Assembly: GCA_965662235.1 (NCBI GenBank)
Contig: CBFIGY010000010.1
Span: 18,403-82,402 of the forward strand
Length of the DNA stretch: 64,000 nt
Source of the DNA: an uncultured bacterium
GTDB taxonomy: Bacteria > SAR324 > NAC60-12
Direction: 5' to 3'
The translations under genes and the position numbers were made by a program. The notes beneath the pieces are model-generated. The model was not told the origin of the DNA. It saw nothing but the letters and a program-made list of their open reading frames with translations, and did no database searches. Below are positions 7,697 to 17,004 of this stretch, in pieces. Numbering within the stretch: the stretch's first letter is position 1; each line of letters begins with the position of its first letter.

Positions 7697-9625
7697 TTGA
7701 CTGCACCCCATCACCTGGTTATTGGAACCAGCGGTCACATTGATCACGGAAAGACGACCCTCGTCAAGGCGTTGACCGGTGTGGATGCCGACCGCTTTGA
7801 AGAGGAGAAGCGCCGGGGCATCACCATCGATCTCGGATTTGCGCACACGACAGATGCGGCAGGCAACACCCTGGCGCTTGTTGATGTGCCGGGGCATGAG
7901 CGCTTTGTGCACAACATGCTGGCAGGCGTTTCAGGACTGGACGCGGTGCTGCTCGTGGTCGCCGCCGATGAGGGCGTGATGCCACAAACCCGGGAGCACT
8001 TGGCCATCTGTGACCTCCTGGGCGTCAGCCAAGGGATCGTGGTCCTCACTCGGATTGACCGTCTGGAGGATCCGGAGCTGGCCGACCTCTGCGCCGAGGA
8101 AGTGCAGGAGCTGGTGCAGGGAACGTTTCTGGAGGCGGCGCCGGTGTTGCCGGTTTCGTCGGTGACCGGAGAGGGGATTCCGGAACTCAAGCAGGCTCTC
8201 TGGAACCTGCACCCCCGTACCCTAGCAGAAGCTCAGGAACGTCCGTTCCGGCTTGCGGTGGACCGCTCCTTTTCGGTGAAGGGCTTTGGCACTGTGGTGA
8301 CCGGGACCGTTTGGTCAGGCCGGACCCGTTTGGAGGAAACGCTGGTGCAGTACCCGCAGGGAAGCCGGGTCCGCATCCGGGGGTTGCAGTCTCATGGGAC
8401 GCAGCAGGAGCAGGTGGTGGCAGGCCAGCGGGCCGCCATCAATCTTGGAGGCGTGCATCACGAAGCCATTCACCGTGGCGATCAGCTGGCGCCTCCGGAG
8501 TCGCTGCTGAACAGCTTCATGCTCAATGTGGAGCTGCGGGTGCTGGCAGATGCGCCTTCGGCTCTGGGACAGCGTCAGCGGGTTCGGGTGCATCTTGGCA
8601 CTCAGGAACTGCTGGGACGCCTCATCCTTCTGGAAGGCGAGACGCTGCTTCCAGGAGCATCCGGGCTGTGTCAGCTGCGTTTAGAGCAGCCCACCAGCAC
8701 CCGTTTTGGAGACCGCTTCATCATCCGGAGCTACTCCCCCAGCCGAACGCTGGGAGGTGGGCAGGTGCTGGATCCGGCGCCCGTGAAGTCCCGGCGTGTG
8801 ATGCACGAACTCGCTCAGCGCCTCCGTGTGCTGCAGGGCCCTGATGAGTCAGGACGCGTGGAGGAAACGGTGTACCTGCAGGCCCTCCGGGGGGTGCGGC
8901 AGGAGGAGCTGGCCGTGCGGTCGGGGCTTTCGGGAAAGCGAGCCGACAAGGTGCTGCAAGCCCTGCAGAGCAAGCAGCGCCTGCTTTGCCTAGACGCTAC
9001 TGAGCGACGGTGGTGGCACATGGATCACCTGCGGCGCCTGGGGCAGTACGTCCGACGCTTGGTTCAGGAACACCATGAGCGCTTTCCAGACCGAGAAGGC
9101 CTCACGCGCTCGGAGCTGGCCGGGAAGCTGGGACCCGTGTTTTCTCAGGAGTCTCAGGTGGAGGCCCTGCTGAAGGTGCTGGTCCGAGAAGCGGTGCTGG
9201 TGAAGCGCGAGCAGGCTTATGCGCATCCGGACCACCAGCCTGAGGTTGCCGAGTCGCAGACAGAACTGCTGGAACGCTGCCTGACCCTGCTGCGAGCCGG
9301 AGGCGCCCAGCCTATGCGGCAGAGCCACCTGCTTGAGCAGCTTGGGCTTGAGGAAAAGGCCGGCGTTGCGTTGCTGAAGTCAGCGTCGCACCACAAGCAC
9401 CTGATCCGGGTGGCTGAAGACCTGTTTTATCCTCCGGAAACGTTGGCTGCCCTAGAGGCGCAGATGCGGGGACACTTTCAGCACCAAGAGACCCTGACTG
9501 TGATCGAATTTAAAGAAATGACCGGGATTTCTCGAAAGCACGCGGTAGAGTTGCTAGAATACTGGGATCGTCAACGCCTGACGATCCGACGCGAAAATCA
9601 TCGCGTTGCAGGATCGCTGGACTAA
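7697..9625 (+). CDS. selB: Selenocysteine-specific translation elongation factor SelB
   Basis: GTSGHIDHGKT, RGITIDLGFA, DVPGHERF; C-terminal winged-helix region SRKHAVELLEYWD. Confidence 0.96.
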   Translation: MTAPHHLVIGTSGHIDHGKTTLVKALTGVDADRFEEEKRRGITIDLGFAHTTDAAGNTLALVDVPGHERFVHNMLAGVSGLDAVLLVVAADEGVMPQTREHLAICDLLGVSQGIVVLTRIDRLEDPELADLCAEEVQELVQGTFLEAAPVLPVSSVTGEGIPELKQALWNLHPRTLAEAQERPFRLAVDRSFSVKGFGTVVTGTVWSGRTRLEETLVQYPQGSRVRIRGLQSHGTQQEQVVAGQRAAINLGGVHHEAIHRGDQLAPPESLLNSFMLNVELRVLADAPSALGQRQRVRVHLGTQELLGRLILLEGETLLPGASGLCQLRLEQPTSTRFGDRFIIRSYSPSRTLGGGQVLDPAPVKSRRVMHELAQRLRVLQGPDESGRVEETVYLQALRGVRQEELAVRSGLSGKRADKVLQALQSKQRLLCLDATERRWWHMDHLRRLGQYVRRLVQEHHERFPDREGLTRSELAGKLGPVFSQESQVEALLKVLVREAVLVKREQAYAHPDHQPEVAESQTELLERCLTLLRAGGAQPMRQSHLLEQLGLEEKAGVALLKSASHHKHLIRVAEDLFYPPETLAALEAQMRGHFQHQETLTVIEFKEMTGISRKHAVELLEYWDRQRLTIRRENHRVAGSLD

Positions 9626-12452: not shown

Positions 12453-12481
12453 TTGACTCCCTGACGGGGAGGCTCTATTTT
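12453..12481 (+). promoter_or_regulatory. Putative sigma70 promoter of rpsU
   Basis: TTGACT-N17-TATTTT. Confidence 0.6.
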
Positions 12482-12535
12482 AATTGATTTGCGTGACGAA
12501 AAGCCACTGAAGATTCAACCCGAATAAGATCCTCC

Positions 12536-12754
12536 ATGCCGATTACCATTGAAGTCCGGGACGGAAACCTCTCCAAGTCGATGATGCAGCTCAAGCGAAC
12601 CTTGATTCGAGAAGGGCTGTTTAAGGAAATCAAGAAGCGTAAGTTTTACGTGAAGCCGTCAGTGGCGAAGCGCCTCAAGCGGGAAAACGCGGAAAAGCAA
12701 CGCAACAAGGACATCAAGCGCGAGATTCGCGCCGCCCTGAAAGCGGACTTCTGA
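12536..12754 (+). CDS. rpsU: 30S ribosomal protein S21
   Basis: 72 aa, basic; EIKKRKFYVKPS motif. Confidence 0.9.
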   Translation: MPITIEVRDGNLSKSMMQLKRTLIREGLFKEIKKRKFYVKPSVAKRLKRENAEKQRNKDIKREIRAALKADF

Positions 12755-12760
12755 GCAAGC

Positions 12761-12779
12761 GGGGGAGGGCCTCTCCCCC
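12761..12779. terminator. GC hairpin between convergent rpsU and selenoprotein genes
   Basis: GGGGGAG...CTCCCCC inverted repeat; no clear U-tract. Confidence 0.45.
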
Positions 12780-12785
12780 ACGGCT

Positions 12786-13004
12786 TCATTCCTTGAGGAG
12801 CTGAACGACCTCTCCGGGCTCCGGGAACCGTCCCTGCTGGTGTTTCGAGAACACCACCCTTCCTTCGTCTTTCACTTCAAACGCCCCCTTCGCACCAGGA
12901 ATCAGTTCGGTTTCCACACCGAAGGTTTCCTGAATTTCTGCGGCCAAACTGGTCGCACGCGGCAGGTAGCTTCACATCACACAGTATTCAATGCTGAGCT
13001 TCAT
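12786..13004 (-). CDS. SelW/SelT/Rdx-family selenoprotein (CxxU), 72 aa, UGA recoded
   Basis: MKLSIEYCVM-U-SYLPRATSLAAEIQETFGVETELIPGAKGAFEVKDEGRVVFSKHQQGRFPEPGEVVQLLKE; in-frame TGA at 12974-12972; AAGGAG RBS; TGATG overlap with the upstream gene. Confidence 0.92.
12939..12957 (-). promoter_or_regulatory. Putative bacterial SECIS hairpin
   Basis: UGCGACCA-GUU-UGGCCGCA stem (one A-C mismatch); loop G lies 23 nt after the UGA. Confidence 0.7.
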
Positions 13005-13741
13005 CAGGCTCTCTCCTTTAAGGATTCAGGGATAGGATCGGCCGGAACGTCCCGCAACAGGCGTGCGGTGACCGCATCCGACTTCCGGGAAAACAAGGGA
13101 CCACGGGGCTGCCGAACCGGGTTGGATCGGCGCAGTCGCGACGGCTGAGAGCGGGGGCTCCAGCGCTGCGGAAGCGACTCCAGCCACGTCCCCAGCGGGA
13201 GTGGCAGAAAGAGGATGGGGCTGAGGCGCATCAGGCACCACAGACCCACCAGCGCCACGCCGGTGAGGCTGACCCAGGGCATGGGGCTGTTCACAATCCA
13301 CTCCCGTCCAATCTGACCGAGGTAGCCTTCCTGCCAGTGGAAGTTGATCGCTAGGGAACGGGCGGTTCCGAACATTCCATGCAGCATACTGGTGGAGGCC
13401 ACCAGCAGAATCGTCAAGATGAGGCGGCTGTGCAGAAAGCTGTACTGCCGCGGCTCCAGCAGCAGCTTCCGGGACCGAGGCAGGCGCCACAGCAGCCAGC
13501 CGAGCAGAAAAGCCGACGTTCCAAACCACTCCAGCAGCGTCCCTGCGAACAGCGCTCCCACAATGCCCAACCAGTTGTGAATACCGTCTACCGGAGAGGC
13601 TTGGTGAAAGAGGGTTGGGTCCTGAAAGTGAGCACTGAACAGACTCATTGCCAGAAACAGTCCCCAAAGCCAATGTCCCCAGCGGCGTGGAACCGGCGGC
13701 GCTTCAGCGAGGGGGCCGTGATGAATGGAAGTGGGGTACAT
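13004..13741 (-). CDS. Stand-alone FtsK 4TM-like membrane protein
   Basis: DP...NWLGIVGA...WFG pattern of the FtsK N-terminal membrane region; no ATPase domain. Confidence 0.65.
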   Translation of the reverse strand: MYPTSIHHGPLAEAPPVPRRWGHWLWGLFLAMSLFSAHFQDPTLFHQASPVDGIHNWLGIVGALFAGTLLEWFGTSAFLLGWLLWRLPRSRKLLLEPRQYSFLHSRLILTILLVASTSMLHGMFGTARSLAINFHWQEGYLGQIGREWIVNSPMPWVSLTGVALVGLWCLMRLSPILFLPLPLGTWLESLPQRWSPRSQPSRLRRSNPVRQPRGPLFSRKSDAVTARLLRDVPADPIPESLKERA

Positions 13742-13743
13742 CG

Positions 13744-14244
13744 TCAGGAGTTGGAACGGGTGACAGCAGCCGTGACCACTTGCGCCACTGAGGGCAGCAC
13801 ATACGTTTCAATGCTTTCTCCCAGAAACGCGAGCTCCCGGACCAGCGAGGAGCTGATCTGGAACCGTTCTGGGCGTCCGAACAGGCAGAAGGTTTCAATT
13901 TCTGGAACAATGACCGCGTTTCCCAACGCCTGCTGCTGCTCCGGGTGAAAGTCGTCCACGCTCCGGAGACCCTTGACAATGGCGCACGCCTGCTTGCTCT
14001 GAGCATACCGAACCGTGGCGCCGGTGAACGAGTCAACGGTGACGTTTTCCAGCTGGTAGTGGTCAACGTAGGCCTGCATCATTTCCACACGTTCCTGCTG
14101 GGTGAACAGGTAGGCCTTGGTCGGATTTACCGCGGCGGCCCAGAAGACGTGGTCAAACTGCCGGGAGGCCCGGATCAGGATGTCCGCGTGTCCGAAGGTG
14201 GGCGGATTGGAGCTGATGGGATAGACCGCGATGTGGGAGGCCAT
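13744..14244 (-). CDS. coaD: Phosphopantetheine adenylyltransferase
   Basis: IAVYP..NPPTFGH, NPTK, KGLRSVDDF, ISSSLVRE. Confidence 0.9.
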   Translation of the reverse strand: MASHIAVYPISSNPPTFGHADILIRASRQFDHVFWAAAVNPTKAYLFTQQERVEMMQAYVDHYQLENVTVDSFTGATVRYAQSKQACAIVKGLRSVDDFHPEQQQALGNAVIVPEIETFCLFGRPERFQISSSLVRELAFLGESIETYVLPSVAQVVTAAVTRSNS

Positions 14245-14247
14245 GAG

Positions 14248-17004
14248 TCAAGACGATTGGGTTCGCGCCTGCTGCACCAAGTTGTGCAGGGTGGTGAGTG
14301 CTTGGAGTGGGGTCATTTGGTCGGGATCCAAGGACTTTAGGGTTTCCAGCCACTCGGGAGTCTCTGCAAACAGAGAGAGCTGTGCCGAAGCGGAAGCCGC
14401 AGCCGACCGAGTCCAGTCCGGTGCCGGCTCCTCGACCTGGGCCGGGCTCCGAGGGGGCAACGGCTGGGCGAGCTCAGGGAGACGGTGTCCCATGGAAGAC
14501 GCCTCCAGCTCCTGCATGACTTGCAGGGCGCGTTCCACAACCGGAGTCGGAATGCCTGCTAGGCGAGCAACCTGAACACCGTAGCTCTTGTTGGCCTCGC
14601 CAGCAACAATCTTCCGGACGAAGACGATTTCCTCTCCGTGTTCCTCGACGACAACGCTGAAGTTGGCCACTCCCTCAAGTTCCTCCGCTAGGGCGTTCAG
14701 CTCATGGTAGTGGGTCGCACAGAGCGTCAGGGCCCCGAGTTCATGAAGGTACTCCGCAATCGACCAAGCCAGGCTGATGCCATCGAAGGTGCTGGTCCCG
14801 CGGCCAATCTCGTCAAGTACGACCAGGCTCTGGGAAGTGGCTTGGTGCAAGATGGCGGCGGCTTCGTTCATTTCCACGAGAAAGGTGCTTTGGCCTTGAC
14901 TGAGGTTATCTGAGGCGCCAACCCGCGTAAAGATCCGATCCACCAAAACCAACTCGGCCTCCTCGGCGGCCACAAAGGATCCGGCCTGGGCCATCAGCAC
15001 ATTGAGCGCGATCTGCCGCATGAAGGTGCTCTTGCCGGCCATGTTCGGACCTGTCAGCAGCATGAGGCGGCATCCGGAGGCCTCCAGCGCAATGTCGTTG
15101 GGCACAAAGGGTTCTCCCAGGCGGATGCTCTCAATGACGGGGTGCCGGGAGTGCCGCAGGCGGATGCTCCCCGGAGCCCCCAGCGGCTTCAGCTGCGGCC
15201 GGACGTACCGGTTCTGTTCAGCAACATGAGCAAGCCCTGCCAGAACATCGGTCTCAGCCACCAGCTGGGCAGCCTGTTGGATGCGGGCGGTTTCCGCAAT
15301 CATCCGGGACTTAAGCTCCTGAAACAGCTCCTGTTCCAAGCGACCAATGCGCTCTTCAGCGGTGAGGATTTTTTCCTCAAACTCCTTGAGCTCCGGAGTG
15401 ATGTAACGCTCTGCATTGACCAGCGTCTGCTTGCGGATGTAGTGCTCAGGAACGGCGTCCTTGTGAGCGTTGCTGACCTCCAGGTAGTAGCCAAAGACCT
15501 TGTTGTAGCTGATCTTCAGGGAGCTGATGCCGGTGGTGTCACGTTCTCGCTGCAGTACCCGGTTGAGGAACTCCTTGGAGTTGCGGGAAATTTCCCGGAG
15601 CTCATCCAGTTCCTCTGAAACCCCCTCTGCCATGTAGCCTCCCTCAGAAAGCCGGTGGGCAGGATGCTCTAGCAACTGTGTCTCTAGCAGCTCCAACAGA
15701 TCCGTCAGCGGGTCGAACTCGGTCCCAATCGCCTGAAGCCGTGAGGCTTCAAGACGCTGGTAGAAGACGGGAAGCTGCTGCAGGGGCTCCAGCGACTCCC
15801 GGAGGCCAACAAGGTCTGGAATGCCTGCAACAGGCAGGCTGAGGCGTCCGATGAGCCGGGGCAGGTCCTGGACCGTCTTGAGCAGGTTGCGCAGCTCTTC
15901 TCGGAGGAGGAACTGACGGGAGAACTCTTCCACGGCGTCGTGGCGTTCAGCGATGGACGATGCCTGCAGCAGCGGACGTCGCAGCCAGTGCCGCAGGAGG
16001 CGGGCGCCCATGGGGGTAACGGTCTGGTCGAGGACGTGAAAGAGCGTGTGCCGTTTTTGTCCAGATTGGGCCTCAAACAGCTCGAGGTTCCGGAGGGTGG
16101 TCTCATCAAGGAGCATGGCCTGCTCCACCGCATGCAGCCGAATCGACGTCAGGTGCGTGAGGTCGCACATCTGCGTGTCCTCAAGGTAGCGCAGAACGGC
16201 TCCTGCGGCCCGGAGGCCATGGGGAAAGTCCTCAATGCCAAAACCGGCCAGGTTGAGCGTCTTGAAGTGCCGGCACAGGTTGCGATGCGCGGCTTCTTCG
16301 TCGAAGTGATAGGGGTCAATGAGCTGGCAGCGGCCCGGGCTGGCTTCCGGACTGGACGAGGCCTCTGCAAGGTGAGGCGACACCTGGTCCAGCAGCTGAG
16401 CGAGGCGCTGTGTGAGGGCTTCCAAAAATTCCGACTCTGCGGTGGAGCGACTCTGCGGCAGCAGGATCTCCTGAGGGTCCAACTGAACGAGGAAGTCATA
16501 AAATCGGGGCAACTGGCTGAGCGCAAACTCACACAGCTCATACTCCCCGGTGGAGACGTCCGCAAAGGCGACTCCGAGCTTCTGGGCCTTGAGGTCAACC
16601 GCAGCCGCAAGGAGGTAGTTGTTGCGGTCTGGGTCAATGAGCTGAGGCGACACCGTTGTGCCAGGGGTGACAATCCGGACGACCTCTCGGTTGACGATCT
16701 TGCCGGTGGCCTGGGCAGGGTCCTCGGTCTGATCGCAGATGGCCACCTTGTAGCCTGCTGCAGTCAGCTTGTTGAGGTACTGCTCATAGGCCCGCACCGG
16801 GACCCCGCACATGGGCAATGCGCCTTCCTTCTTCTTGTCCCGAGACGTCAGGGCAATCTGCAGCACCCGTGCGCCAATCACCGCGTCTTCCCCAAACATC
16901 TCAAAGAAGTCCCCCATCCGGAAGAAGAGGATCTTGTCCGGATGCTGACGCTTGGCGTCTTGGAACTGACGCATCATCGGCGTCTCAGTGGGCGGTGCGC
17001 TCAT
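14248..17004 (-). CDS. mutS: DNA mismatch repair protein MutS
   Basis: TPMMRQ, FRMGDFFE, TGPNMAGKST, DEIGRGTST, SYGVQVARLAG. Confidence 0.97.
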   Translation of the reverse strand: MSAPPTETPMMRQFQDAKRQHPDKILFFRMGDFFEMFGEDAVIGARVLQIALTSRDKKKEGALPMCGVPVRAYEQYLNKLTAAGYKVAICDQTEDPAQATGKIVNREVVRIVTPGTTVSPQLIDPDRNNYLLAAAVDLKAQKLGVAFADVSTGEYELCEFALSQLPRFYDFLVQLDPQEILLPQSRSTAESEFLEALTQRLAQLLDQVSPHLAEASSSPEASPGRCQLIDPYHFDEEAAHRNLCRHFKTLNLAGFGIEDFPHGLRAAGAVLRYLEDTQMCDLTHLTSIRLHAVEQAMLLDETTLRNLELFEAQSGQKRHTLFHVLDQTVTPMGARLLRHWLRRPLLQASSIAERHDAVEEFSRQFLLREELRNLLKTVQDLPRLIGRLSLPVAGIPDLVGLRESLEPLQQLPVFYQRLEASRLQAIGTEFDPLTDLLELLETQLLEHPAHRLSEGGYMAEGVSEELDELREISRNSKEFLNRVLQRERDTTGISSLKISYNKVFGYYLEVSNAHKDAVPEHYIRKQTLVNAERYITPELKEFEEKILTAEERIGRLEQELFQELKSRMIAETARIQQAAQLVAETDVLAGLAHVAEQNRYVRPQLKPLGAPGSIRLRHSRHPVIESIRLGEPFVPNDIALEASGCRLMLLTGPNMAGKSTFMRQIALNVLMAQAGSFVAAEEAELVLVDRIFTRVGASDNLSQGQSTFLVEMNEAAAILHQATSQSLVVLDEIGRGTSTFDGISLAWSIAEYLHELGALTLCATHYHELNALAEELEGVANFSVVVEEHGEEIVFVRKIVAGEANKSYGVQVARLAGIPTPVVERALQVMQELEASSMGHRLPELAQPLPPRSPAQVEEPAPDWTRSAAASASAQLSLFAETPEWLETLKSLDPDQMTPLQALTTLHNLVQQARTQSS

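Follow-up and report, generated by a model that had tools for sequence, protein, structure and literature searches.

The window, meaning the whole stretch of 64,000 nucleotides analysed here and numbered from its first letter, carries on its minus strand a short SelW-like gene whose reading frame contains a TGA (Table 1). The gene is the last in a tightly packed minus-strand string that begins with mutS and continues with a cytidylyltransferase-like gene and a membrane-protein ORF of the FtsK_4TM type. The TGA stop of this last ORF shares one base with the ATG of the SelW-like gene, and the four genes together look like one operon. On the other side lies the convergent rpsU. The GC-rich inverted repeat between the two convergent genes has no T-run on either strand, and a terminator scan made no call there. 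At the upstream end of the string, mutS and the cytidylyltransferase-like gene are set 2–3 nt apart, and the 4TM and SelW-like genes follow directly.

Table 1. Features at and around the SelW-like gene, given in window positions; minus-strand features are written from their 5′ end
Feature	Position	Strand	Remarks
mutS, 918 aa	17004..14248	-	all five MutS domains; first of the packed string
cytidylyltransferase-like gene, 166 aa	14244..13744	-	profile match
membrane-protein ORF, 245 aa	13741..13004	-	FtsK_4TM only (PF13491, 47.2 bits); no translocase motor
Shine-Dalgarno-like AAGGAG	13018..13013	-	8 nt spacer to the ATG
SelW-like (Rdx family) selenoprotein gene	13004..12786	-	72 codons and TGA stop; from sequence and TGA=U translation
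start codon ATG	13004..13002	-	nine sense codons follow, then TGA
C-x-x-U redox motif, codons 8–11 (TGT GTG ATG TGA)	12983..12972	-	residues C8-V-M-U11
in-frame TGA, codon 11	12974..12972	-	selenocysteine reading; open frame continues beyond
bacterial SECIS hairpin, 7-pair stem	12957..12939	-	15–33 nt after the UGA; from folding and alignment covariation
hairpin loop AGUUU	12950..12946	-	invariant loop G at 12949
true stop TGA	12788..12786	-	ends the 72-residue frame
GC-rich inverted repeat, 7+7 bases, loop of 5	12779..12761	-	between the convergent SelW-like gene and rpsU
rpsU	12536..12754	+	convergent with the SelW-like gene
selB, selenocysteine-specific elongation factor	7697..9625	+	TIGR00475, 377.6 bits (cut-off 242.25)

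Translated with TGA as selenocysteine (U), the frame gives a product of 72 residues with the motifs IEYC-x-x-U, G-x-FEV, VFSK and RFPE. An earlier note on this DNA, made from the letters alone, had described a minus-strand ATG followed by an in-frame TGA and an open frame, a preceding AAGGAG ribosome-binding site and these four motifs, and we find every one of them where it placed them. Many of the 30 homologues introduced below likewise have a GGAG-like motif ahead of their start codon, as judged by inspection of the 20 nt upstream rather than by counting. The gene was said to be absent from the ORF track, and this is so: the plain ORF listing contains, in the same frame, only a 53-aa TTG-started fragment (12786..12947), and the full SelW-like gene is therefore missing from it.

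The read-through protein is a SelW-like member of the Rdx, or SelT/SelW/SelH, family. A search of the TGA=U translation with the Pfam Rdx model (PF10262), which the note had proposed as a check, matched residues 3–71 at 75.6 bits against a cut-off of 22.6 (E 3.5e-21). The NCBIfam equivalog NF041051, ‘SelT/SelW/SelH family (seleno)protein’, scores 95.2 bits (cut-off 88), and TIGR02174 scores 61.1 bits (cut-off 34.2). Because the Rdx match spans the TGA it is not a chance match; a stop codon in a stretch that is not a gene would preclude it. Seven solved Rdx proteins (3dex, 2fa8, 2ljk, 2ojl, 2oka, 2p0g and 2obk) are likewise matched by sequence, with E values from 2.5e-11 to 5.2e-6, and in the two alignments inspected, those with 3dex and 2fa8, residue 11 falls opposite the second Cys in the CxxC motif.

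The predicted structure agrees with this assignment. An AlphaFold model built on a 30-sequence alignment (mean pLDDT 88.9) has a strand at residues 3–8, a helix at residues 14–28, three more strands and C-terminal helices, and it places C-x-x-U between the first strand and the helix. The solved Cys-form proteins, 2fa8 (Agrobacterium Atu0228), 3dex (Streptomyces SAV_2001), 2oka, 2ojl, 2obk and 2p0g, superpose on the model with TMq 0.90–0.93 and rmsd 1.0–1.1 Å. Their CxxC aligns with the C-x-x-U found here, although they carry Cys in place of Sec and their chains are longer (about 100–108 residues vs 72). MIEN1 (2ljk, TMq 0.77) and mouse SelW (2npb, TMq 0.65, with 22% identity in the structural alignment) belong to the same Rdx fold family, whose mammalian members have C-x-x-U or C-x-x-C. 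Ordinary thioredoxins match the predicted fold weakly in a structure search. The model thus points to a thioredoxin-like fold that matches the solved members of the family.

The in-frame TGA is conserved among relatives. Within the same genus, family and order (41 genomes, the window's own included), 32 genomes contain a match, and all 33 match rows hold exactly one TGA. Thirty of these loci were fetched for a check of its position, the three weakest match rows giving no locus, and in 30 of 30 the TGA is the codon directly after C-x-x. The 30 homologous proteins are 46–92% identical to the protein of the window, and 13 positions are invariant in all of them: M1, I5, Y7, C8, U11, P15, A17, L34, G40, F42, S53, F60 and P61. 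These residues lie on either side of the TGA, both sides of which are thus under protein-level constraint. The true stops vary among the 30 loci (16 TGA, 10 TAG and 4 TAA), and codon 11 is constant. In the phylum, 68 of 88 genomes have an Rdx match, and 70 of 70 match rows contain one TGA; here the position is verified for the 30 loci, and the other rows state that one TGA lies inside the match.

Cysteine forms of the protein occur in other lineages. We sought them by a pattern scan using one genome per species and recovered eight Cys-form homologues which, going by their record titles, come from Gemmatimonadales, Nitrospirota, Thermodesulfovibrionales, Verrucomicrobiales and Caulobacteraceae. 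Their identity to the query is 44–50% in seven cases and 30% in the eighth. In all eight, the codon equivalent to codon 11 is TGC. No Cys form is found among the Rdx matches of the 88 phylum genomes searched. The earlier note had held that its reading would fall if homologues lacked C or U at codon 11; those examined carry one or the other, encoded by TGA in 30 of 30 relatives and by TGC in eight of eight Cys forms. As judged by comparison of sequences, the in-frame UGA has Cys as its counterpart in homologues, and orthologues conserve both the UGA and the coding sequence to either side of it.

These data bear on the possibility that the locus is a pseudogene, that is, an Rdx gene whose Cys codon (TGT or TGC) mutated to TGA and which is now dead. 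A single base change would convert either codon to TGA, and TGC-encoded Cys forms do exist in other lineages. Against this, all 30 relatives examined have the TGA at one and the same codon, even at 46% identity, and the reading frame before and after it is open and conserved; each of the 70 phylum matches also holds a single TGA. No accumulated frameshifts or stops are seen in the 30 loci. Moreover, two other studies yielded DNA contigs that span the gene and have the same TGA; within the gene they differ from the window at just two positions, 12849 and 12921, in each case by a third-position TTC>TTT change, so that the strain variants are synonymous. The covarying hairpin and the complete selenocysteine machinery described below also speak against a pseudogene, and we give this explanation scarcely any weight.

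A second possibility is that the UGA ends a 10-codon leader and that the real protein is shorter and starts downstream, for example at the TTG of the 53-aa ORF (12947), as public gene calls have it. Eleven close relatives were returned from a large protein collection. They are 43–65 residues long and cover 60–82% of the query, and their sources name several of them SelT/SelW/SelH or selenoprotein W-related. All 11 are N-terminally short calls, and two of them match, by eye, proteins of same-genus relatives cut to 43 and 53 aa. Together with the plain ORF listing, which gives only the 53-aa ORF, these calls favor a short product. Nevertheless, the called starts vary in position from relative to relative, as gene-caller artefacts would. 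All 30 homologues conserve residues 1–10, among them the invariant I5, Y7 and C8; the ATG at 13004 has a ribosome-binding site in front of it; and both the profile match and the predicted fold require strand 1 (residues 3–8). A short product is therefore hardly credible. The short database entries instead bear out the earlier suggestion that standard gene callers overlook a 72-aa CxxU protein. Among the 11 relatives returned, the lineage's gene is on record only as 43–65-residue fragments without C-x-x-U; the full-length reading corrects this annotation, and selenoproteome counts that draw on such gene calls miss the gene.

Downstream of the UGA, within the coding region, the mRNA can form a short hairpin of the bacterial SECIS type. 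The seven stem pairs in the window are U-A, G-C, C-G, G-C, an A·C mismatch, C-G and C-G. Counted from the last base of the TGA, the loop G is 23 nt away, exactly as the note had it. In an ungapped alignment of the 30 genes (alignment A1; TGA in columns 7–9), columns 24–30 pair with columns 36–42 across a 5-nt loop in which the G of column 32 and the T of column 35 are invariant; the loop G is mostly followed by U, giving GU. The hairpin 3′ of the UGA, which the note had proposed from the window's sequence, is conserved among relatives with compensatory changes: 89.5% of the 210 cells (30 genes by seven pairs) are standard pairs, and four of the seven pairs have changed on both sides, in 37 cells. 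The pair that is mismatched in the window is unpaired in 14 of the 30 sequences.

Several controls support this register. Sliding the 3′ partner by 1–3 columns lowers the paired fraction to 21–54%, and RNAalifold independently recovers the same helix. In 500 shuffles the observed percentage of paired cells, covariation score, number of double-change cells and number of further pair types are never reached, and the observed count of pairs with changes on both sides is reached in 96; since the relatives are kin, this control makes the result look more significant than it is. The outermost pair, which links two third-codon positions, occurs in four forms (CG in 7 genes, GC in 6, UA in 6 and AU in 5), variation at sites where protein constraint hardly explains the pairing. 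By folding energy, the hairpin of the window is no stabler than shuffled sequences (z -0.14, 85/200 as good; z -0.50, 55/200); such a comparison says little about a hairpin of 19 nt, and curated models are not defined by it. As energy fails to separate the hairpin from shuffles, we rely on covariation instead. A search of the window against Rfam at gathering thresholds returned only a tRNA and matched no bacterial SECIS model, of which Rfam may have none.

The Cys forms pair less well in the same register (28 of 56 cells, 50%, n=8). One of them, a Gemmatimonadales Cys form with TGC at codon 11 (L053:601-819), keeps six of the seven pairs of the SECIS register, and the hairpin is thus not strictly confined to UGA genes. 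This hairpin may reflect a recent Sec-to-Cys conversion or may be an effect of Ala-rich, GC-rich codons.

The source genome (75 contigs, 96.9% complete) encodes the full set of selenocysteine genes. A tRNA-Sec gene (selC) is detected by Rfam RF01852 at 65.2 bits (cut-off 47) and is called tRNA-SeC with anticodon tca by ARAGORN. In a profile search of the genome, selA and selD score 522.7 and 359.7 bits, both above their curated cut-offs. The note had placed selB roughly 3 kb from the SelW-like gene, and it lies about 3.2 kb from the end of that gene; its product has the Pfam domains GTP_EFTU, Beta-barrel_SelB, SelB-wing_2 and SelB-wing_3. The absence of selA, selC or selD had been named as a second finding that would overturn the selenocysteine reading, and all three are present, along with selB.

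The selD gene is itself a selenoprotein gene. It lies outside the window (L017:1468-1575, on contig C32 of the source genome, G000) and contains one in-frame TGA, at codon 21, in the context T-C-G-U-A-A-K. Selenophosphate synthetases have their catalytic Cys or Sec at this place. An 8-pair hairpin with a GGUC loop follows the TGA (z -3.0; one of 200 shuffles folds as well).

Near-cognate or suppressor decoding might also read through the UGA and insert a different residue there, Cys or Trp. The identity of the residue inserted at UGA-11 is deduced rather than observed, and under selenium shortage some systems have been reported to insert other residues at Sec codons. Yet among true stops in the window TGA occurs most often: it terminates 23 of 39 long non-overlapping ORFs, and the SelW-like gene as well. 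A dedicated tRNA-Sec, SelA, SelB and SelD are all encoded, and a conserved SelB-type hairpin sits at the right distance from the UGA. Insertion of another residue is accordingly very improbable. Global reassignment of TGA was also considered and rejected, as TGA is the usual stop among these same 39 ORFs.

We hold with high confidence that the minus-strand frame is a functional gene encoding a 72-residue SelW-like Rdx protein with selenocysteine at residue 11. What supports it is membership of the family, the conserved UGA, the pairing of Cys with Sec among homologues, the covarying hairpin and the machinery encoded in the genome. The interpretation offered in the earlier note, that the UGA is read as selenocysteine in an Rdx/SelW protein, is thereby upheld. 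Selenium insertion itself, SelB binding, redox chemistry and a physiological substrate are what we infer for the protein. The C-terminal winged-helix domains of SelB would bind the mRNA hairpin at 12957..12939, with its G in a small apical loop, and SelB would bring Sec-tRNA(Sec), charged through the SelA and SelD encoded in the genome, to a ribosome at UGA-11, allowing translation to proceed past the UGA. The product would have a thioredoxin-like fold of minimal size, in which C8-x-x-U11 lies where strand 1 ends and helix 1 begins. To our knowledge, a biochemical function has been established for no bacterial SelW-like protein. The protein of the window would most likely be a thiol-dependent oxidoreductase in which C8 and U11 cycle between a selenolate/thiol and a selenenylsulfide form. 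A redox role of SelW-like proteins has likewise been deduced from the CXXU motif in PMC1088965.

The bacterial family to which the SelW-like gene belongs is abundant and has long been known, and the gene is an ordinary member of it; recovering it is an annotation fix and adds no new system. Knowledge of bacterial SelW-like C-x-x-U selenoproteins goes back to about 2005. In Sargasso Sea data, SelW-like proteins with the CXXU motif are described as the most abundant selenoprotein family, with 48 genes (PMC1088965). PMC1794560 lists SelW-like proteins for many bacteria, with few or no Cys homologues in Sec-using organisms, which agrees with the TGA in 70 of 70 phylum matches here. The present protein shares with the bacterial SelW-like CXXU proteins (TIGR02174, NF041051, PF10262) its length class, its N-terminal C-x-x-U, its profiles and a coding-region SECIS hairpin with a G in a small apical loop. 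It does not differ from them in kind, the one distinction being how this lineage's copies are recorded, as N-terminally short calls among the 11 relatives returned. The E. coli fdhF-type SECIS is likewise a hairpin just after the UGA, inside the frame, with an apical-loop G, and it is served by a winged-helix SelB; the stem sequence differs, and the loop G here lies 23 nt after the UGA. Eukaryotic SelW has its SECIS in the 3′ untranslated region and uses a different insertion machinery.

What the locus adds is a clean comparative case of a coding-region SECIS stem whose covariation extends to synonymous sites, together with a phylum that yielded no Cys form in the 88 genomes searched. The tidy covariation and the apparent lack of Cys forms in the phylum are the only points likely to surprise selenoprotein specialists, and the understanding of selenocysteine insertion and of SelW-like function is unchanged by the finding.

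The genes around SelW-like homologues vary. In a survey of 101 neighbouring ORFs of at least 90 aa from the 30 loci (E ≤ 1e-5), no neighbour family is common to all 30 loci, and gene context thus gives no firm functional clue. HD-domain proteins are found at 12 loci, cytidylyltransferase-like proteins at seven, PspA at six and FtsK_4TM proteins at five, the window's own included. Less frequent are S21, at four loci, and pyridine-nucleotide disulphide oxidoreductases, at three; the S21 count is too low because S21 is shorter than the 90-aa limit. We also considered whether the SelW-like protein of the phylum is an obligate selenoprotein that serves, in the sub-clade of the window, as a soluble redox partner of the upstream FtsK-4TM-like protein. 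This is unlikely; if true, it would supply the first defined partner for a bacterial SelW-like protein.

A Pyr_redox_2 domain is encoded in the flank of the SelW-like gene at three loci (L030, L032 and L042), and at L030 the dimerisation domain is matched as well. Such a flanking pyridine-nucleotide disulphide oxidoreductase could be the reductase for the SelW-like protein. Contigs of two RNA libraries (X16 and X17), compared with 12500..14300, cover only about 12500-12750, the region of rpsU, and are neutral on transcription of the SelW-like gene. Upstream of rpsU, on the plus strand, a sigma-70-like promoter match spans 12453-12481, with TTGACT and TATTTT separated by a 17-nt spacer.
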